From Candidatus Caldarchaeales archaeon (GTDB lineage Archaea > Thermoproteota > Nitrososphaeria_A > Caldarchaeales > Calditenuaceae): a DNA stretch of 32,000 nt. A model generated the notes under the pieces. That model did not search any database and was not told the origin of the DNA. It saw nothing but the letters and a program-made list of their open reading frames with translations. The DNA lies in the NCBI GenBank assembly GCA_032249095.1, contig JAVVGN010000002.1, positions 2,048-34,047 of the forward strand, read 5' to 3'. Below, in pieces: positions 3,201 through 19,377 of the stretch (the stretch's first letter is position 1; each line of letters begins with the position of its first letter). The translations under genes and the position numbers were made by a program.

Positions 3201-4979
3201 CTCGTCGGCGAACGTCATCATCTTATTGAACGGGTAGGGAAGGGGCCAGTAGCCGGAGCTTAGACCCAGACCCACAGCGGTTCCTCCACCCGGCCCATAC
3301 ACGACCGATGCTGTGGGAGTGAAGCCTACATAGATTCTCACCAAGAGGTTTGGTACTGGTCGGTACCAGCCCACCGACGCATTATACGTCGTTACACGCC
3401 CCCTAAGCTCTATAAAGCCCGCGTACTCTGCGAAACCCCCGGGCTGTACAAACACTCTGGCTGGGGAGACGCTCTGCCAGCTGATTCCAAGCTCGTTCTC
3501 ATTGAGGAACGAGTCTATGATGTGCGCGATAGCATACATCTGCGGCTTTAGGGATGGGATATCCACTAGAGCTAGGTCATTTACGGGCGTTCCGATCCAG
3601 TATCTGGACGTCTGGGCCGAGTGTATTGTGAAAGCTATGCCCCTGGTCTGCTCGGCTGGCTCGGTATCAAGCATGTAGGGATACTGCTGTGACCCCCAAT
3701 ACATACCGTTTGTGAAGAATTCTGCGATGAATGAGGTAGGCTCGACACCAACCATTTTCCGGAGATTGTCAACGAAGCCTGGATCATGAATGTAGTTTGT
3801 GAATATCTGCTTCCTCACCCACGCGTATCTAACAGTTATTCCTCCGGCGTTGCTTGTAGTCGCGTAGAGGCTTAGGGCGCTTCCCCTAACCAAGTCGAGA
3901 CCAACCCCACGTGGATCTAGGTCCCCTATCCCTATCATCATCATCGGCCTAAACTTCCCTCTATCCACCTCGGCGGAGAAGTAGAACCTGTCCACGAAAC
4001 TTCTGGGCCCCTCGAGTCCTTGCCAATGCCCGCTGAAGAATACGAACCAGGTGTTCCAGAGAGGCCTATTGGCCGAGAAGTATTTCGCGAGCTCTAGGAG
4101 TAGGGAGGGCGCAACCGCCTCCATGGCGCCCGGCGAGAGGGCTGGCACGGCAGACCAGCTATCAAAGCGCGCGGCTAGAAGAATGGCCTCAGACCTATCA
4201 GCATTCCTTCCCTCGAGGACGCCAATCACGTTGTACGCGGTCTTCTCTACATACCGCATATTGACGTGGACCGTGGCCCCCGCACCACTCTCAGCCAGAC
4301 CGATGAGTTTCTCACCGACAGCTCTATCCACGTAGAGCCTCGGAAAGTTGATCGGCGCGTCTACGAACTTTTTGATCGATTCTTGATAGGGGGGTACCGT
4401 GGGGGGCGCTATGAATACGACGGCTCTAGCTCCCAGCTTGGCCGCATTTATCCAGTTAGATCCGCTCATATAGTCCATCAGAACTATCGCATTTTCGACC
4501 TCCTTTCCATCGAAGTTCTCTAGGTCCCCTCTACCTACATAGATGAGGTGGCCTGAAACACCTTCCGCTGTGGTTCTCGAGACCTGTACACCGTTGGGCC
4601 ATACTGCAAAGGCTTCAAGCCTAGACTTCTCGCCGTCAAGCTCCACTTCTATCCAAGAGCCGAGGTCTATCGGAACAACTACACTATAGTTATGTATGAT
4701 CACCCTAAGCCCCATCGCCTTCAGCCTCTCAGCGATGTAGTTGGCCGCCTCGTAGTGTCCCTGATAACCCGTGACCCTACTACCTAGTCCGCTGAGATAC
4801 TTGATGTGAATCATAATGGCTTCTTGGTCGATGGCGTCGGGCCCTATCCTCGCGGCCGTGGCCTGCTGCCCCATTGTGGTGGGTGTGAGGAGCGAGAAGG
4901 CGGCGGAGGCCAGTAGCAATACTGATAGCGCGTATACGATTAGTGGTGCGGAGGCCTCCTTCTCTCTGCGCGTGAGCAT
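294..4979 (-). CDS. giant multidomain membrane protein: signal anchor + PA/M28-like ectodomain (apparently non-catalytic) + beta-sandwich region + MacB/FtsX-type permease module + C-terminal cytoplasmic domain
   Basis: 1561-aa ORF. The N-terminal hydrophobic anchor is APLIVYALSVLLLASAAFSLL. A PA-like segment (GHLIYVGRGDLENFDGKEVENAIVLMDY..AAKLGARAVVFIAP) is followed by an M28-like core (NVIGVLEGRN..ILLAARFDSW..SPGAMEAVAPSLLLELAKYF..FVFFSGHWQGLEGPRSFV). There is a carboxypeptidase-regulatory-like motif (DENGYFTVKGLVP). A MacB-like TM1 (RRRLRTALVLGSIVGVTLGLSVF) is followed by an extracytoplasmic domain and an FtsX signature (VERKREIAVYSVLGLPPLGSSFLFLVESAVYASLGALVGYLFG). Confidence 0.8.
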   Translation of the reverse strand: MLTRREKEASAPLIVYALSVLLLASAAFSLLTPTTMGQQATAARIGPDAIDQEAIMIHIKYLSGLGSRVTGYQGHYEAANYIAERLKAMGLRVIIHNYSVVVPIDLGSWIEVELDGEKSRLEAFAVWPNGVQVSRTTAEGVSGHLIYVGRGDLENFDGKEVENAIVLMDYMSGSNWINAAKLGARAVVFIAPPTVPPYQESIKKFVDAPINFPRLYVDRAVGEKLIGLAESGAGATVHVNMRYVEKTAYNVIGVLEGRNADRSEAILLAARFDSWSAVPALSPGAMEAVAPSLLLELAKYFSANRPLWNTWFVFFSGHWQGLEGPRSFVDRFYFSAEVDRGKFRPMMMIGIGDLDPRGVGLDLVRGSALSLYATTSNAGGITVRYAWVRKQIFTNYIHDPGFVDNLRKMVGVEPTSFIAEFFTNGMYWGSQQYPYMLDTEPAEQTRGIAFTIHSAQTSRYWIGTPVNDLALVDIPSLKPQMYAIAHIIDSFLNENELGISWQSVSPARVFVQPGGFAEYAGFIELRGRVTTYNASVGWYRPVPNLLVRIYVGFTPTASVVYGPGGGTAVGLGLSSGYWPLPYPFNKMMTFADENGYFTVKGLVPYPFVPGSRYFVEAWGFSEETGEIIYAPDLGIYGARSIVPTVSPLAPFDEVSVVVFRAIPTQLFDLIDLTNFRSALVPDPHLPGWATVTTGGQAGLGGGWYHTSGASVVPLNFIIKGDLLFYGVYFNMYEPVGVVFTQPGDIFMVLGRLGGTGVALSRVPYIALVNSTSEKMEGVGFSPRRETTLHHTAYRIALDMYSISKHRYESLSRGSVRTLSVEQKLEHAEKYLSLAEEALREKKYSLFQSYSILAWGWAYRAYNEVMGLINDSSSTSLFFITLVVISSVFTERLLVHSEGRRRLLFIALVGGIFFLLFTLVHPAFTVMSTAIMAVFGLLTIILYLIVISVLGNEVERVRRSISYRLLGSHVMEMGRVGIAAVAYNTALENMRRRRLRTALVLGSIVGVTLGLSVFTSVAPSVDVMFPTIPQEAPMDGVSVRIGYAIPVGGVMGVEGMEALKAYEQRGMIVAPRAWLYPASIYPNIGPVLSVSKNPLRESSYNIHAVLGLTPQDAQMVLSRVIKAGSTFSDLHSYEIIVPDAMADALQLRVGDDVYMMGLRFRVVGIFSSQEAEALREISGFSMAPINPYYVGSVAFGATIPTQQTPPPLPWDRLVVAPFGIVTQLGGYVASYNIYPGPNTSPSDLRSLSSDLAMATDLAVYVGERGTTYRASRVSSFKAVGWEIVPALIVIGALNTVINLMGSVVERKREIAVYSVLGLPPLGSSFLFLVESAVYASLGALVGYLFGFFLNRLFIDIGILPQAYTLNYASIFIMLSLGVVIIAALLASIYPSRIAAMLVTPSLERRWKPPTRPREGVWRMPLPLSVDTFEEAAAFTYFLHEYYQGAGAEKPNFRVRAVNPPVITDDGLLHLELAVSLAPYEQGINQNVEIISQYDESSKRYLFDLVMSKTSGSDSLWAVQSYFFADDLRKQVLIWRAISAEERSKYVEAARPLIASQHSRGSS

Positions 4980-5346
4980 TTAGTTTACCCACTAATCCAC
5001 GCGTTGAGGTGCTTATCAATCTTTTCACGTACTGGGACCTTAGTCCCTTGATCTTACTCTCTCCGAAAAGCACTTTGAGTGGCGTGAGTAGCCTCAGCGC
5101 GAGGTTCTCGGCTATAACCGAGCTAGACAGGTCCTTCAGGAGGAGGTTATAGGTGGTGATGATTGTCCTTACGTTGTCTCTCTGCTGTATTCTGATGTAG
5201 TCTCGCTCAGAATCATGTAAAACGAGCCGTTCATATATTATGTTGCCCCAAGCTCTGACCGGGTACTCGAAGGCCGCGACCTCCCGCCCTAAAGCAGCAT
5301 CGCCTAGCCCCAGCGCCGCGCCGGAACGAGCCAATCCACTCTCCAC
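4780..5346 (-). CDS. hypothetical protein; 3' end uncertain because the last ~200 nt overlap the start of the 1561-aa ORF out of frame
   Basis: ATG at 5346 has a TATA-like box (TTTTATAA, 5372-5379) 26-33 nt upstream, which fits a leaderless-type start. The first ~120 residues look protein-like (EYPVRAWGNIIYERLVLHDSERDYIRIQQRDNVRTIITTYNLLLKDL...). The overlapping tail is Arg/His-rich and looks like off-frame sequence. No family recognised. Confidence 0.3.
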   Translation of the reverse strand: MESGLARSGAALGLGDAALGREVAAFEYPVRAWGNIIYERLVLHDSERDYIRIQQRDNVRTIITTYNLLLKDLSSSVIAENLALRLLTPLKVLFGESKIKGLRSQYVKRLISTSTRGLVGKLNAHAQREGGLRTTNRIRAISIATGLRRLLAPHTHHNGAAGHGREDRARRHRPRSHYDSHQVSQRTR

Positions 5347-5371
5347 ACCTGTTCTAAGTTAGGTCTCAGTC

Positions 5372-5379
5372 TTTTATAA
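5372..5379 (-). promoter_or_regulatory. TATA-like box for ORF starting at 5346
   Basis: Minus-strand GTTATAAAAG lies 26-33 nt upstream of the ATG at 5346, the typical archaeal TATA-to-start distance for leaderless mRNAs. Confidence 0.35.
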
Positions 5380-5781
5380 CACTACGCGCGAAGGGGATTA
5401 ATAGAGAGAGATTTTGGTCGTTTGTTAGTCTGGCCTTGGAAATCCGTATAGTGTTGTCTGTCCTTTTCCCCTGAATATTACCTCGTTTCCCCAGCATTTC
5501 TCTTGGGAGTATTAGTCCCTTTGATGCTTTATGTATCCTAGTGGTAGTTCTTTGGCTCCCTCTATGAGGTATAGAATGTTTCCATCCATTTGTAGGTTTT
5601 TCTATTTGTATTTTATTGCCCAGTACTGTTTGCTGTAGAGTATCTTGACTATTATCTTCTTGAACCCTCTACTCTCTCTATTCTTCTCAGGACGGGGTTT
5701 GGAGTGATTCTTATGAACGGTTTGTCCAGCTCTTAGTGAGTGCAGGGTTGGTGATGGCCCGACTATTGAGGCCACTATTCC

Positions 5782-5787
5782 TTATAT
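5782..5787 (+). promoter_or_regulatory. TATA-like box inside element copy 1 (conserved block)
   Basis: CCTTATATGCGG aligns with CTTTATATGTGG (copy 2) and CTTTATAGGTGG (copy 3) within a block conserved in all three copies. Orientation cannot be fixed from sequence alone because the box is quasi-palindromic. Confidence 0.3.
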
Positions 5788-5811
5788 GCGGTGCTGGTGG
5801 AGGGTCTTATC

Positions 5812-6117
5812 CGAGCAGGTGATGCGGATGTGGTTGGTGGTGACTGATTCGGGGATCGAGGTGGGGAGGGTTCTGAACATTACTCCGACCCCAGACGGAG
5901 TCGTGATTGTGCAGAACGTGTAGGATGGCAGGCTGAGGACATGGATGATACCCTCCATCGCGACGCTTAGGTGTCTGATATACGAGGCGACGGTTGGAGA
6001 GACGCCGCCGAGAATCTACCACCAACTTAACTCAATGGTCCTAGAGAGGGAGTAGATAGAGAGGTTCCACATAGTTGCGAGGCCATACGAGATAAAGACA
6101 CAGAATGAGGGGTGTAG
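5812..6117 (+). ncRNA. candidate structured leader / guide-type RNA of element copy 1
   Basis: G-rich sequence downstream of the conserved TATA block. No reading frame is conserved between copies. A long-range helix pairs GTTGGTGGT (5833-5841) with ACCACCAAC (6018-6026). The 3' block GGTTCCACATAGTTGCGAGGCCATACGAGATAAAGACACAG is shared with copies 2 and 3. Confidence 0.3.
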
Positions 6118-6962
6118 TGGGCGGAGAGATGCCTGCCGCTGGCGCTTCGGATCAAGCTGTACAATGATGTTGTTGCCCTTCGGAGACGCGGTCTGACATA
6201 TAGAGGGATCATCGGGGAGATCTATCGAAGATACGGAGTCAGGATATCTGAGTCGTCGATAAGCGAGTGGCTACGCGGGGTGCATAACCCATACAACGGA
6301 AGAAGGATATCTTCGCTAGAACTGTTGAAGCCCTCTGAGGAGTTGGCGTACGTGATAGGTGTGAAGGTCGGTGACGGATACACTTATAGGAGAAGACGCA
6401 CCATCAAAGGCTACAATGACGTAAAAATAGGTCTTAAGGCTAGGGATGGGAGTTTGTCGAGGAGTTCGCTAGGTGTCTTGCAAAGGTTCTGGGCAGGAAA
6501 CAAATAAGGCCGAGATTTAGGGATGACGTAGGAAAATATGTCGTTGAAGTTAAGTCGAAGACGCTCTACGAGCTTCTGAAAAAGCCGGTAGACCTCCACA
6601 GACTGAAGAAATATATTGAGCATTGCGAGAAGTGCGTTGCGGCTTTCATCAGGGGCTTCGCGGACTCGGAAGGAAGTGTTGACAAGAATGGACACATATT
6701 TATCCTCAACACCGACCAGAGACTACCCATATATGTTAAGGAGCTTCTTAGGAGACTTGGCATAGAGTCAACGGGGCCAAGAATTCATGTCCGGCGAGGA
6801 ACTATATTCTATGATCCTAGGACGGGGAAGAAATACACACATGACAAGGATGTATATGTGATCTATGTTCGAGCCAGCAGTAATATGAGCTTCTACAGAT
6901 AGGTGGGCTTCACTATTAGGAGGAAGCAGATACGGCTAGAAAGCTACATCAAGAGAAGCACT
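6118..6962 (+). pseudogene. LAGLIDADG-type endonuclease with N-terminal HTH-like segment, disrupted
   Basis: Two LAGLIDADG motifs are present: ELAYVIGVKVGDGYTY (frame 1) and VAAFIRGFADSEGSV (frame 3). The HTH-like N-terminus reads LRIKLYNDVVALRRRGLTYRGIIGEIYRRYGVRISESSISEWL. Lesions: no canonical start in frame after the stop at 6115-6117, a frameshift near 6447-6450 (DG|EFVEEFARCLAKVLG continues in another frame), and an in-frame TAG at 6900-6902 followed by protein-like VGFTIRRKQIRLESYIKR. Confidence 0.7.
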
Positions 6963-7144
6963 AGAAAACTTACCCCTCCCCCAACCATTTCTCCCCATTC
7001 AACATCCTCAAAATAATAACTAATATGGGGCCCGGCGGGTCTAGACATGTTCCTAAACTTCGCGTGAGAGGTGAGGCTCGAGGGGCCTGCATCGCTCCTG
7101 CCAAAGCTTTTATGTTGCGAGAAGGCGGCTAAATCCGAGGGAGC

Positions 7145-8218
7145 TTGAGGGAATTCAGAGTAGGGATTATAGGTTGTGGAGGGATCGCGCAGAACGTACA
7201 CATTCCTGGATACCAGAAGCTAGAGAGTGTTAAGGTCGTGGCCTGCTGCGACGTGGTTGAGTCCGTCGCCATGAAGGCGGCCGAGAAGTTTGGGATACCT
7301 CGCTACTACACGGACTACTCGAAGATGCTGGAGCGAGAGAAGCTTGACGCCGTAAGCGTATGCACACCAAACGCACTGCACAAGGAGCCTACGATCCTGG
7401 CCCTCGAGAGCGGTGCCCACGTGCTCGTTGAGAAGCCCATAGCAACGAGTGCCGAGGAAGGCGCCGCGATGGTTCGCGCGGCTAAGAAGGCTGGCAGAAT
7501 ACTGATCGTGGGGTTCCAGGAGAGGTTCAACCCCTACGGGATGGTGATTAAGAGGTTCGTGGAGAACGGCGATATCGGTTGGATCTACTATAACAAGGCA
7601 GTCTATCTGAGGCGGAGAGGCGTCCCAACGTGGGGGGCGTTCTTGGATAAGAAACTCCAGGGGGGAGGAGCCCTCATAGATATCGGGGTTCACGCCCTAG
7701 ACTTGGCGATGTATCTCCAAGGATTTAAGAAGCCCGTGAGCGTGTTGGGGAAGGTCTATACCCTGTTCGGAAAAAGCGAGGAGGCGGCTCAGGCCAACGC
7801 TTGGGGGCCATGGGACCCATCCAAGTTCGAGGTAGACGACAACGCGCTGGGGGTGGTGAATATGGAGGACGGCTCAACTCTCATACTGGAGGTCTCTTGG
7901 GCGAGCCATCTAAAGTCGACCGGCTCCTTCAACGTTATTCTCCGGGGCACCAAGGGTGGGGCCCAGCTCGACCCCCTCGAGATCTACATGGATAAGAACG
8001 GTGTCGCGGCCGACGTAACACCAATCCTTCACGGAAAGAAGCCCGACTGGAGGGAGCAGTCATACATGAAGATTCAGAGGTTCATAGAGTCGATTATTGC
8101 TGAGAAGCCCCTCTACGCCCCTGGGGAGGAGGGCGTGATCGTCCAGGCGATCATCGACGCGATCTACAAGTCCTCGCAGACGGGTAGGGTCGAGCCCGTG
8201 AACATACCTCCAATGTGA
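7145..8218 (+). CDS. Gfo/Idh/MocA family NAD(P)-dependent oxidoreductase
   Basis: The N-terminal Rossmann motif is FRVGIIGCGGIAQNVHIPGY. The EKP motif is present (VLVEKPIATSAEE). The C-terminal alpha/beta domain is typical of the family. TTG start. Confidence 0.85.
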   Translation: MREFRVGIIGCGGIAQNVHIPGYQKLESVKVVACCDVVESVAMKAAEKFGIPRYYTDYSKMLEREKLDAVSVCTPNALHKEPTILALESGAHVLVEKPIATSAEEGAAMVRAAKKAGRILIVGFQERFNPYGMVIKRFVENGDIGWIYYNKAVYLRRRGVPTWGAFLDKKLQGGGALIDIGVHALDLAMYLQGFKKPVSVLGKVYTLFGKSEEAAQANAWGPWDPSKFEVDDNALGVVNMEDGSTLILEVSWASHLKSTGSFNVILRGTKGGAQLDPLEIYMDKNGVAADVTPILHGKKPDWREQSYMKIQRFIESIIAEKPLYAPGEEGVIVQAIIDAIYKSSQTGRVEPVNIPPM

Positions 8219-16241: not shown

Positions 16242-17097
16242 ATGTTGAAGTTCTACGCAGATGTTCAGATGTTCATAGGACTAAGAAGAATAGCGAGGGA
16301 TACAGGATAACATACTCTACTGACGGAACGACTTTCAGGCACGTAGACAGCTTCAGCGGGATGCCGGCTGGGCCCGGAGATCAAGTATTGGTGGATACAC
16401 TACCGGTCCAGCACACGGACGGCGCGATAGAACTTATGAGGAGAGGGGTGGAGGTCTATTATCTTAGGAGGCTTACACTGATTGAGAAGATGCGCAGGGA
16501 GCATAAGTTGCCGAAGACTGCTAGGGGAGACATCAAGGCATTGATGAGTGTTGAGGAGAGGTGGTTTAGGAGGATTACTGGGGACTTCCTAGTTATGCGT
16601 AGGATGATACTGGCCTATAGGTCTCTATTGAGGAGCCATCAGCAACTGCTGAACAAGTATAGGGCTTTGTCTGAGGTTGAGAAGGTGGTTCTGAAGCCAG
16701 CTATCTGATCCATAGAGAAGCAGATGGTGGAGATGGCTAGGATGATTGTTGGGGAGGCTGGTAGGAGGTATCCGGCCTATAATTGGCTAGTTGATAGGCT
16801 GGGTATTCGTGGGAATATTAAGGCGCTGGAGGCTTTGGCCGAGCTGATACCGTATGTTGGCCAGCCGATGGGTCTCAGAAAGATGATTAACCTTCTGGGC
16901 TTGTTCAGACCGTCCGTGGGAGAAAGAAGATCTATTGCGGGTATTTGAGGCGTGCTTTGCAGAGGCTGACGGCTTCAGCAAACAACACCACATCATTTCA
17001 ACTGACCGCGGAGAGGAAGAAGGAGGTGTTATCGAGAGTCTGGAGGATATATAGGCAGGAAGTCCTTGGGAGGCTGGCCATGCCGACGCAGGGATAA
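16242..17097 (+). pseudogene. IS110-family-like recombinase, disrupted
   Basis: Clearly alignable at the nucleotide level with 11623..12576. Lesions: an 8-nt tandem duplication GATGTTCA/GATGTTCA (16260-16275) shifts the frame, an in-frame TGA at 16706-16708 sits where copy 2 has TCT, and a further frameshift occurs near 16945 (the YLRRALQRLTASA motif continues in another frame). Confidence 0.7.
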
Positions 17098-17258
17098 AAC
17101 CGGAGGCCGGCATGACGCATAGTTTAACGAGCACCCCGCTGTCGGGTGCTTTGATGGGTGGATAAACGTCCGGCCTCCTCTAAGGGTTTCCCAGATGCTG
17201 CACGGATGGCCAGCCACCCCTCCCCCCTTCTTCCCCTTTACAATAAATTTAAATTGAT

Positions 17259-17336
17259 ATTTAGTTGGTTTAATATGGCGTTATGGTGGTTATGATTGAT
17301 GAAAGCTTGGCGAGGCCTTCATTAAACCGACTAAAT
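17259..17336. repeat. 16-nt inverted repeat (one G-U/mismatch position) upstream of glgB
   Basis: ATTTAGTTGGTTTAAT (17259-17274) and ATTAAACCGACTAAAT (17321-17336) are separated by a 46-nt spacer. A third half-site-like TGGTTTAAT lies at 17339-17347. The repeat sits in the AT-rich region between the right end of copy 3 and the glgB start. Confidence 0.6.
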
Positions 17337-17385
17337 AATGGTTTAATCGTTTATCCACCCCCACCATCCTAGGCATACAAGCCGG

Positions 17386-19377
17386 GTGCGGGTGGGCGAG
17401 GTGGCGCGAAGTGAGGTGAAGCCGCTTTACGACGTGAGCCTCATAACCGACTACGATGTATACCTCTTTAGGAGCGGGACGCACTACCGGCTATACGAGA
17501 AGCTGGGCGCCCACATAACCGAGCGGGAGGGCGAGAGCGGCGTCTTCTTCGCCGTCTGGGCACCAAGCGCCGAGAAGGTCTCGGTCATCGGCGAGTTTAA
17601 CGGCTGGGACCCGGATGTCAGCCCCCTGAGAAAGAGGGGCGACGGCTCCGGGATATGGGAGGGCTTCATACCCGGCCTCGGGCAGGGAACGCTCTACAAA
17701 TACAAGGTGTTTGGGAGAGGAGGATACGTCGCTGACAAGTCAGACCCCTTCTCCTTCTTCTTCGAGGCGCCTAGGACGGGGGCCGCCTCGGTGGTCTGGA
17801 GCCTCGACTACTCGTGGGGCGATGAGGAGTGGATGAGTGGACGCCGGAGGGCTAACTCGCTTAAGTCTCCCATCAGCATATACGAGGTCCACCTAGGCTC
17901 TTGGCGCCGCGCTCCAGAGGAGGCTGGGCGGCACCTGACCTACCTTGAGCTCGCCGAGCAGCTACCTAGATACGTCTCGGAGATGGGCTTCACGCATGTG
18001 GAGTTCCTGCCAATCATGGAGCACCCGCTCTACGCCTCGTGGGGGTACCAAGTCAGCGGATACTTCGCCCCGACCTGTAGGTATGGGAAGCCACAGGACT
18101 TCATGCGCCTGATAGACGCGCTACACCATGAAGGCATCGGCGTTATCCTCGACTGGGTGCCATCCCACTTCCCCCGCGACGAGTACGGGCTCGCCTACTT
18201 TGACGGGACACACCTCTACGAGTACGAGGACCCGAGGATGAGGATACACCCCGACTGGGACAGCCACATCTTTGACTATGGGAAGAACGAGGTGAGGTCC
18301 TTCCTGATAAGCAGCGCACTCTTCTGGCTCGACAAGTATCACGCGGACGGCTTGAGGGTTGACGCCGTGGCCTCTATGCTCTACCTCGACTACTCGAGGC
18401 CGCCGGGCGGCTGGGTGCCCAACATATACGGTGGTAAGGAGAATCTCGAGGCGATAGCCTTCCTCAGGGCGCTGAACGAGGCCGTCTACAGATATTATCC
18501 AGAGGTCCAGACGATAGCCGAGGAGTCGACGGCATGGCCTAACGTCTCTAGGCCGACCTACATAGGGGGTCTAGGTTTCGGCCTCAAGTGGAACATGGGC
18601 TGGATGCACGACATGCTGTTCTACTTCTCGAGGGACCCGATCTATAGGAAGTACCACCACGACATACTCAAGTTCGTCGCGTGGTACGCCTACTCGGAGA
18701 ACTTTGTTCTGCCGCTCTCGCATGACGAGGTTGTTCATGGGAAGGGCTCCCTCCTATCCAAGATGCCGCTTGACCCGTGGCAGAAGTTCGCCAACCTCAG
18801 GGCCCTATACGGCTTCATGTACGCCTTCCCCGGGAAAAAGCTCCTCTTCATGGGTGGGGAGTTCGGACAGTGGGCCGAGTGGAGCCACGATAGGAGCCTC
18901 GACTGGCACCTCCTACGATATGAGCCACACAGGGGCCTCCAGAGGCTCGTCAAGGACCTGAACAGGCTTTACAGGAGCGAGCCCGCACTCCACACAGGCG
19001 ACACGGATCCGAGGGGCTTCGAGTGGATCGACGCCAACGACTGGGAGCAGAGTGTCATATCATTCCTGAGGAAGGACGTGGATGGGGAGGGGGTCGTGAT
19101 GGTCGTCTGCAACTTCACCCCTGTCCCGAGGACCGGCTATAGGGTTGGGGCGCCGGTGGCGGGCTACTGGCGGGAGATACTGAACACGGACGCTGCGGAG
19201 TACGGTGGCTCGGGCTGGGGCAACATGGGGGGAGTCGAGGCCGAGGAGATAGGTTTCCACGGAAGGCCCGCCTCCCTCCCGCTCACACTCCCACCACTGG
19301 CCTGCCTGTATCTTAAGCCCAAGGAAGATGCTGAGCGGAGAGGGATAAACAGGGGCGTCGCTCACCTCGCGCTATAA
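17386..19377 (+). CDS. glgB: 1,4-alpha-glucan branching enzyme, GH13 type
   Basis: The sequence matches bacterial-type GlgB throughout: [94 protein letters not shown]. The GTG start is uncertain by a few codons. Confidence 0.9.

Follow-up and report, generated by a model that had tools for sequence, protein, structure and literature searches.

The window analysed here is a stretch of 32,000 nucleotides (nt) on the forward strand of contig JAVVGN010000002.1 (positions 2,048 to 34,047; GenBank assembly GCA_032249095.1) of a Candidatus Caldarchaeales archaeon, in which one transposon-like element is present as three plus-strand copies within 12 kb. Copy 1 (5442 to ~7024) is a decayed version with a gene for a LAGLIDADG endonuclease, copy 2 (11112 to ~12650) carries an IS110-like gene of a subfamily called type A, and copy 3 (16019 to ~17260) combines a short-leader chassis with a decayed IS110-like type A gene. 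A first-pass annotation, made from the sequence alone, had noted that two unrelated DNA enzymes share one promoter, leader and terminus context in copies 1 and 2. Comparison with related loci places both enzymes in the same slot of one backbone, and copy 1 is probably a decayed member of a widespread LAGLIDADG lineage of a modular element, in which the slot content would be exchanged by recombination and the LAGLIDADG version would home at the ends of tRNA genes.

The left-end core of copy 1 (5442–5493, plus strand, beginning with ATCCGTATAGTGTTGTCTGTCC) is 98% identical to 11112–11163 and 88% identical to 16019–16069, and 85–100% identical to the left-end cores of related loci with all three types of cargo. 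When copies 1 and 2 were compared by blastn, four collinear plus-strand blocks were obtained: the left-end core itself (51 of 52 positions identical, the first 46 without exception; expectation value (E) 2.7e-21), 5496–5551 against 11267–11322 (82%, E 1.6e-11), 5736–5864 against 11333–11469 (72%, E 8.8e-15), which contains the TATA block at 5781–5788, and 5969–6117 against 11464–11617 (82%, E 9e-40). No significant blastn similarity was found from 6118 to 6966. Exactly three occurrences of the motif ACCCCTCCCCC were counted in the window (6972, 12607, and 17216), each at the equivalent right end of a copy, as against 0.06 expected from shuffled sequences. The blocks listed in the first-pass annotation (46-nt left end, internal blocks, TATA block, and right-end motif) were thereby recovered, the blastn blocks with E values of 1e-11 to 1e-39, as was its observation that homology stops before the start codon and resumes at the right end; the shared leader stretch preceding the start codon is real, but extends over about 150 nt rather than the ~60 nt first estimated. 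Terminal inverted repeats were not reported between the left and right ends, which begin with ATCCGTATAG and end with AATAACTAAT, respectively, and are unrelated to each other.

Downstream of the last shared leader block, copy 1 carries the pseudogene of an endonuclease with a helix-turn-helix (HTH)-like N-terminus (6121–7016, plus strand), in which the motifs GVKVGDG and RGFADSEG are present. Its assignment, initially made from the motifs, holds in a Pfam search, as the repaired frame matches LAGLIDADG_3 (PF14528) with an E value of 1.2e-13, and 656 homologues of the protein were found, the closest of which (P0121) is intact and 89% identical. All three lesions described at first reading were confirmed. 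The start codon has been lost by a change from GTG to GCG at 6121–6123 (GTG is kept in loci L001, L082, L089, and L090), one base has been deleted from the G run at 6448–6450, where every intact homologue aligned possesses the extra base, and a TAG at 6900–6902 replaces a tyrosine codon within FYRYVGF. The slot protein has the architecture of a two-motif monomer with an HTH-like N-terminal extension; among 22 members of the family the GDG of the first motif is invariant and RGFADSEG nearly invariant, and the catalytic D and E are conserved.

The right end of copy 1 (6967–7024, plus strand; motif at 6972–6982, terminal ...CAACATCCTCAAAATAATAACTAAT) overlaps the 3' end of this gene. The LAGLIDADG reading frame passes through the right-end motif, where it codes for TPPP, and stops inside the terminal AACTAAT. 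Homology to other LAGLIDADG-type loci extends to ~7024, so that the right end initially placed at 6996 had to be moved outward; the terminus is common to L002, L050, L079, L084, L094, and L103 and is homologous to the right ends of type A elements, for example in L060. At 7026–7039 on the minus strand, 14 nt resemble the 3' end of a tRNA gene (acceptor 3' strand and T-stem), of which no complete copy is present.

The sequence abutting the cargo, which had been regarded as part of a non-coding chassis, is a decayed protein-coding gene. Positions 5798–6117 (plus strand) represent the 3' part, about codons 63–166, of an open reading frame designated ORF165, with internal stops, a frameshift, and the stop codon TAG at 6115–6117; they are 65% identical to residues 63–166 of the ORF165 protein in tblastn, and a shorter ORF165 piece lies in copy 2 at 11464–11625. 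Intact ORF165 genes of 163–167 codons exist elsewhere, such as in L012 (1501–2004, followed by a gene for a 276-amino acid protein) and L004 (938–1435, followed by a LAGLIDADG gene). Substitutions between these two genes are distributed 11/9/35 over the three codon positions, and the variability (entropy) among 36 unique sequences is codon-periodic over codons 43–147; ORF165 is under codon-level selection in other Caldarchaeales loci. The protein family that it defines comprises 120 members, in which no known domain was recognized. Having a dead gene (start, frameshift, and stop), a truncated ORF165, and a 14-nt tRNA remnant, copy 1 is therefore a fossil.

LAGLIDADG genes are generally associated with introns, and this association had led to the suggestion that the element is intron- or IStron-like, with a group I or group II ribozyme as leader and the LAGLIDADG protein as intron-encoded endonuclease. 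The general association is also all that speaks for this idea, although group I introns have been reported in archaea (PMC6125680). Rfam models searched at gathering thresholds over the whole window detected no group I, group II, or other family, and at E ≤ 10 the region 5300–7150 gave only a chance sRNA match. The long-range helix GGTGGTGA/CCACCACC noted in the leader is indeed present in its minimum-free-energy fold, but the leader is no more stable than its shuffles (z = +0.64 and +0.25), and a structured leader RNA was rejected. Because no Rfam family was found and no leader structure exceeded the shuffles, and given that the leader is a decayed coding gene and the element lies between genes and not inside one, an intron- or IStron-like nature was rejected as highly improbable.

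The organization of complete elements was derived by tblastn from 80 loci that were fetched via ORF165 and from further loci fetched via the LAGLIDADG and 276-amino acid proteins, about 100 in all. A full element consists of the left end, about 140 nt, the genes ORF284, ORF64, and ORF165, the slot gene, and the right end, with the slot gene beginning 0–20 nt after the ORF165 stop codon. Directly after ORF165, an IS110-like type A gene was found at 45 junctions, an IS110-like type B gene at 20, and a LAGLIDADG gene at 30 (35, 19, and 17 unique junctions, respectively). L069 represents a complete LAGLIDADG element, and the left end of long forms is seen in L102 and L068. Deletions have produced long, medium, and short classes of chassis length, each with several slot types; copy 1 has a medium chassis with an internal ORF165 deletion, and copy 3 as well as both elements in L103 belong to the short class.

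With 17 unique LAGLIDADG junctions from many samples, the arrangement is not unique to the window. A one-off secondary insertion or a chance similarity of the blocks, for which nothing beyond the decay of copy 1 could be adduced, is practically inconceivable and was ruled out by the block E values, the unique junctions, and the presence of the element in a GTDB representative genome. The latter, from the Nitrososphaeria, was the only match besides chance bacterial ones when GTDB genomes were scanned with the left-end DNA pattern; a scan of GTDB genomes with ORF165 gave no match.

On a neighbour-joining tree calculated from 300 nt of ORF165, the distribution of cargo types implies 11 changes (Fitch), where at least 2 are required and random distributions average 30.5. 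Types B and LAGLIDADG are intermixed in this tree, and L068, which carries a type A gene, nests among the LAGLIDADG loci L069, L070, and L071. The leader phylogeny and the junction counts thus uphold the cassette-like exchange that the first-pass annotation had proposed; its alternative, mobilization in trans, is disfavoured as the main route by the tRNA context described below. Slot modules would have been swapped repeatedly by recombination between co-resident elements, with ORF165 3' ends and right ends serving as the homologous borders. In L040 (1158–2420) and L041, a type B gene contributes its first 22 codons to a fusion with a divergent LAGLIDADG gene, which has a long N-terminal extension and tRNA-Lys(ctt) downstream. 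This chimera represents a separate replacement event whose breakpoint differs, and at least one exchange would accordingly have been an illegitimate replacement inside a type B gene.

Several loci contain reduced or clustered elements. A miniature in L001 (3617–4134; also in L082 from 6701) consists of the left end, the 3' RNA region described below, and the right end without an enzyme gene, and in the deletion derivatives L091 (~4337–4450), L092 (~4205), and L101 (~615) ORF165 directly adjoins the 3' RNA or a LAGLIDADG-type right end. Clusters of equally oriented elements occur in the window, L012, L052, L077, and L082.

The insertion contexts of the slot versions differ. A convergent tRNA gene with its 3' end a few nt beyond the terminus was found at 12 of 22 unique right flanks of LAGLIDADG versions, and at none of 23 type A and none of 15 type B flanks. 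Eleven different tRNA genes adjoin LAGLIDADG versions; those found comprise Lys(ttt), Lys(ctt), Ala, Thr, Gly, Met, Pro, Arg, Val, and Gln, plus Asp at a greater distance. Look-ups via the LAGLIDADG protein, which are independent of ORF165, agree on the tRNA adjacency, and several other LAGLIDADG flanks look like tRNA ends that ARAGORN did not call. In the window ARAGORN detected no tRNA; the 14-nt remnant beside copy 1 occupies the same position as the complete convergent tRNA genes in L002, L040, L069, L071, L079, L084, and L103. These positions suggest that the LAGLIDADG enzyme, and not the IS110-like enzyme, sets the location of LAGLIDADG versions. It would recognize and cut DNA at the 3' ends of tRNA genes, upon which repair would copy in or retain the element by homing.

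Two loci show additional features around tRNA genes. In L103 (3209–5632) a tRNA-Val gene lies between two elements, with a LAGLIDADG-type element ending just past its 3' end and the left end of a type B element 64 nt from its 5' end. In L002 (1796–2572) the contigs of the P0140 group remain identical beyond the LAGLIDADG element for ~790 nt, a stretch that includes tRNA-Lys, before they continue in three different right flanks; this may represent an assembly fork or a larger repeated block.

Alternatively, the LAGLIDADG version could be a non-autonomous passenger that is moved in trans by the IS110-like enzyme of sister elements, together with its RNA, the endonuclease being either inert cargo or a selfish gene that had at one time entered the gene of the recombinase. 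Elements with different cargo have homologous ends, and the left-end cores of copies 1 and 2 are nearly identical within the same genome, as expected of such a passenger; likewise, the enzyme-less miniatures and derivatives (L001, L091, L092, and L101) and the LAGLIDADG gene inside the type B gene of L040 fit this explanation, as does the recurrence of one frameshifted LAGLIDADG allele at three or more different sites. A passenger should, however, share the insertion context of its sisters, whereas tRNA adjacency was seen at 12 of 22 LAGLIDADG flanks and at 0 of 38 IS110-like flanks. Moreover, the active-site residues and the whole LAGLIDADG frame are conserved across hundreds of homologues, which argues for selected activity, and the presumed helper, a protein lacking the serine of IS110 recombinases, is at best a putative transposase. 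Transport in trans is therefore considered unlikely as an explanation for the LAGLIDADG lineage.

The 1-nt deletion of copy 1 (6448–6450) was found in identical form in L082 (~4700) and in L100, in a minus-strand copy (~2670) and at 4477–4525. The L082 and L100 copies with this deletion are otherwise open, and the divergence among the copies is mostly at third codon positions. Possible sources of the shared allele are gene conversion, a frameshift that is tolerated, or the spread of a defective version.

The enzyme that occupies the slot in the sister elements was characterized mainly through a predicted structure. The type A protein has 276 amino acids, and 317 in copy 2 (gene at 11623–12576, plus strand; core ending at 12450) owing to a late frameshift. 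Here one extra base precedes the normal stop (...QLVVTAQAPG), adding 41 further codons that run through the RNA region (12430–12576); P0003 and P0005 have similar extensions. Neither this protein nor type B matched a meaningful family in Pfam, NCBIfam, PHROGs, or PADLOC, and a profile search among 1.84 billion representative proteins recovered only 166 relatives. P0001–P0120 and P0241–P0390 are members of the protein family with this fold. Type B forms a second subfamily of 284–303 amino acids, which hhalign connects to the family profile with a probability of 98.7% (E 2e-16).

An AlphaFold2 model built from 34 diverse members reached a predicted local distance difference test score (pLDDT) of 92 and shows a RuvC-like domain, a coiled coil, and a helical C-terminal domain. 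The best Foldseek matches in the Protein Data Bank were ISCro4 (9t56) and IS621 (8wt6, 8wt9), with template modelling (TM) scores of 0.60–0.64 and E values of about 1e-7 to 1e-6, followed by the TIGR protein TasR (9mty, TM 0.60, E 5e-6); when Protein Data Bank sequences were searched with the profile of the family, only a coiled-coil match to RF2 was obtained. In the alignment of the 34 members D6, D48, and D93 are invariant or nearly so. The DxxD motif is present as KSDENDA in type B and distant relatives, and its first D is replaced by A or T in subfamily A, to which the protein in the window belongs. No conserved serine column exists in the family alignment (P0090 and P0096 have RLAKK vs. 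SSR in others), and the C-terminal domain is predicted to be all-helical without a beta-hairpin, the loop 221–230 being of low confidence. PF02371 was not detected in the family, and PF01548 gave weak matches to 4 of 34 members (best E 0.0098), none of which reached the threshold. A serine on a beta element is needed for recombination by IS110 enzymes and is lacking in Nop5 (Vaysset et al., 10.1101/2024.06.21.599552). Since the protein has no conserved serine and an all-helical C-terminal domain, it lacks a defining feature of the IS110 family. Judging from the model, it is IS110/TasR-like in fold and not a member of the IS110 family proper; the designation as recombinase in the first-pass annotation thus agrees with the fold but not with the missing serine. 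It may represent an archaeal intermediate between IS110 recombinases, TasR, and Nop5.

In IS110-like versions about 170 nt separate the stop codon from the right-end motif, a region without counterpart in LAGLIDADG versions, copy 1 included. In copy 2 this 3' RNA region (12440–12606, plus strand) folds into a three-way junction of helices P1, P2, and P3 and is more stable than shuffled sequences (z = -4.21; none of 200 shuffles equally stable). Alignment across RNA subtypes with MAFFT and RNAalifold did not recover the helices; folding of the core region was therefore performed per sequence, and the junction proved to be kept in five subtypes by different helix sequences. The structured region is also found in L012, L028, L029, L035, L042, and others, with a conserved P2 loop motif GGRGA-AAA-RCCC. 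No Rfam family matched it. A comparison with the left end, right end, and flanks revealed complementarities of only 7–10 nt. Matches in the right end and flanks do not recur, and the 7–8 nt matches to the left end do not exceed chance. In subtype A1 two segments of the P2 loop (12477–12499), GGGGAAAA and ACUAUAC, have their complements, arranged antiparallel, in TTTTCCCC and GTATAGT within the left end (11116–11141), matches that are too short for significance.

The properties of this protein and its RNA permit a further explanation, which is drawn by analogy with TnpB and IscB in IS605 and IS607 elements and is regarded as a tentative possibility: the slot genes would not encode the transposase but interchangeable accessory nucleases that home or restore one and the same transposon. 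The serine-less RuvC-Nop-like protein with its 3' RNA would be RNA-guided and the LAGLIDADG enzyme protein-guided, and strand transfer would be carried out by ORF284, ORF64, or ORF165, or by the host. The missing serine and the all-helical C-terminal domain agree with what is described for TasR and Nop5 in two studies (10.1101/2024.06.21.599552; PMC12045711). The position of the RNA between gene and right end resembles that of the TnpB guide RNA, and site-specific nucleases of this kind in mobile elements (TnpB/IscB) promote, with a structured RNA, retention or spread by homing (PMC13565253). ORF64 and ORF165 remain intact in LAGLIDADG versions that have no IS110-like gene at all, and the confinement of an enzyme of fixed specificity to conserved tRNA ends would fit as well. 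On the other hand, neither a catalytic domain nor a known fold was detectable in ORF284, ORF64, or ORF165, short-chassis copies without these genes are common, the first D of DxxD is missing from subfamily A, and guide-like complementarity was not demonstrated. An extended form of this idea, in which the slot protein is a living IS110/TasR/Nop5 intermediate and the three backbone genes are an unrecognized module for transposition or regulation, is held just as tentatively.

The backbone proteins themselves gave few clues. ORF284, ORF64, and ORF165 had no meaningful match in Pfam, NCBIfam, PHROGs, or PADLOC, ORF284 and ORF165 had none by sequence in the Protein Data Bank, and the AlphaFold2 model of ORF165 (pLDDT 61) was too poor for a fold search. 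ORF284 (L012 452–1306), whose middle parts are variable (179–284 amino acids), and ORF165 (1501–2004) share the motif EL..YEGYY........Y......RF, which suggests partial paralogy.

Elements of the IS110 family are characterized by a RuvC-like DEDD domain, a serine in the Tnp domain, a bridge RNA with target- and donor-binding loops, and the absence of terminal inverted repeats; in the IS1111 subgroup the RNA lies at the 3' side. The element described here resembles IS110 (IS621, ISCro4) in the same three-part predicted fold of the slot protein (TM 0.60–0.64), the lack of terminal inverted repeats, and a structured RNA encoded inside the element beside the gene. It differs in that the protein has no PF01548 or PF02371 match above threshold, no conserved serine, and no C-terminal beta-hairpin, and subfamily A lacks one DEDD residue. 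Furthermore, the element has up to three extra genes, its module of enzyme and RNA is replaceable by LAGLIDADG, and the 3' RNA is only a candidate, in which target- and donor-binding loops were not demonstrated.

TIGR-Tas systems possess a Tas protein (Nop, with or without RuvC) beside a tandem interspaced guide RNA array. The similarity in fold to TasR (9mty, TM 0.60) is comparable in degree to that with IS110, and TasR likewise has no serine nucleophile. In contrast to TasR, a RuvC-Nop nuclease according to Faure et al. (PMC12045711), the protein studied here is encoded within a mobile element, and its partner is one three-way-junction RNA; the region 5000–17600 contained no tandem interspaced guide array. 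The host is an archaeon, as opposed to the phage and parasitic bacteria named in the abstract of that study (PMC12045711).

With LAGLIDADG homing endonucleases, such as archaeal enzymes of the I-DmoI type, the slot endonuclease shares the two-motif monomer, the acidic residues of GDG and SEG, and a conserved class of genomic target. It is distinguished by the HTH-like N-terminal extension, by its location outside an intron or intein as the last gene of a transposon-like backbone whose right end encodes its tail, and by a target context that, judging from flanking sequences, comprises the 3' ends of many different tRNA genes. In OMEGA systems the guide RNA reads into the flank. A similar way of working to TnpB and IscB of IS200/IS605 and IS607 elements is possible by analogy, with a putative site-specific nuclease in the element and a structured RNA beside its right end, but there is no homology, and unlike those systems and IStrons the element has no TnpA-like gene and no ribozyme; TnpB, IscB, and Cas12 structures were not among the Foldseek matches listed. 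Overall, the element is best regarded as a new modular relative of IS110-like elements that stands outside the IS110 family proper, and a description of the family was not found in the literature or domain libraries searched.

The interpretation of copy 1 as a decayed member of a LAGLIDADG lineage that exchanges slots by recombination and homes at tRNA ends has to be weighed against several observations. The left end is as conserved in LAGLIDADG as in IS110-like versions, which is unexpected if homing were the only mode of movement. One frameshift allele is shared by at least three sites (window, L082, and L100), from which it follows that copies with such a defect persist or spread by means of help in trans. 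No empty site was recovered, and none orthologous to the flanks of the three window copies was found among the fetched loci, so that the exact ends, any target duplication, and the insertion mechanism are putative. None of 82 right flanks occurred with different cargo, and an in-place replacement was therefore not caught directly. Copies on one contig are only 70–90% identical to each other and thus give no sign of recent bursts. Finally, many of the loci represent the same site in different metagenomes and were de-duplicated by sequence only, and the leader tree carries no support values.

The remaining features of the window complete the annotation of the three copies. Copy 2 consists of the left end and leader (11112–11622, plus strand), followed by the type A gene, the 3' RNA region, and the right end (12607–12650, plus strand), and in copy 3 (plus strand) the 3' RNA region lies at ~17050–17215 and the right end begins at 17216. 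In copy 1, the left-end-proximal leader (5494–5797, plus strand) belongs to the medium-length class of chassis and is collinear with L076, L083, L075, L066, and L113 (76–79%), where it precedes ORF165 from about codon 13–15; its TATA-like block at 5781–5788 is presumably a promoter. Left of the conserved left end, the sequence 5394–5441 (plus strand) ends in a semi-conserved TCTGGCCTTGGAA block and has a 47-nt match (87%) to L062 (1982–2026) and similar sequence in L103, and TCTGGYCTTGGRW stands before ATCCG in most loci irrespective of cargo. As the sequence 5394–5441 possibly belongs to the left end, the true left boundary is uncertain.

The genes around the element copies are archaeal. On a near-identical contig from an ENA metagenome assembly (99.9% over 11.8 kb), gene calls exist for the large subunit of DNA primase and for amidotransferase subunits of the GatD and GatB types, and the named homologues of the element proteins originate from Candidatus Caldarchaeales genomes. 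The hosts of the element family are thermophilic, hot-spring Caldarchaeales (class Nitrososphaeria).

The element family is a natural case in which an RNA-associated IS110/TasR-like enzyme and a protein-only homing endonuclease have been exchanged repeatedly in one backbone. As the two versions have clearly different insertion contexts, the role of the slot enzyme in target choice is directly testable. The LAGLIDADG family comprises hundreds of members, located at many different tRNA gene ends, and may offer thermostable enzymes of related but distinct specificities. The slot protein of the sister elements, being archaeal, serine-less, invisible to Pfam and NCBIfam, and accompanied by a covarying RNA, bears on the proposed evolutionary link between IS110, TIGR-Tas, and Nop5.

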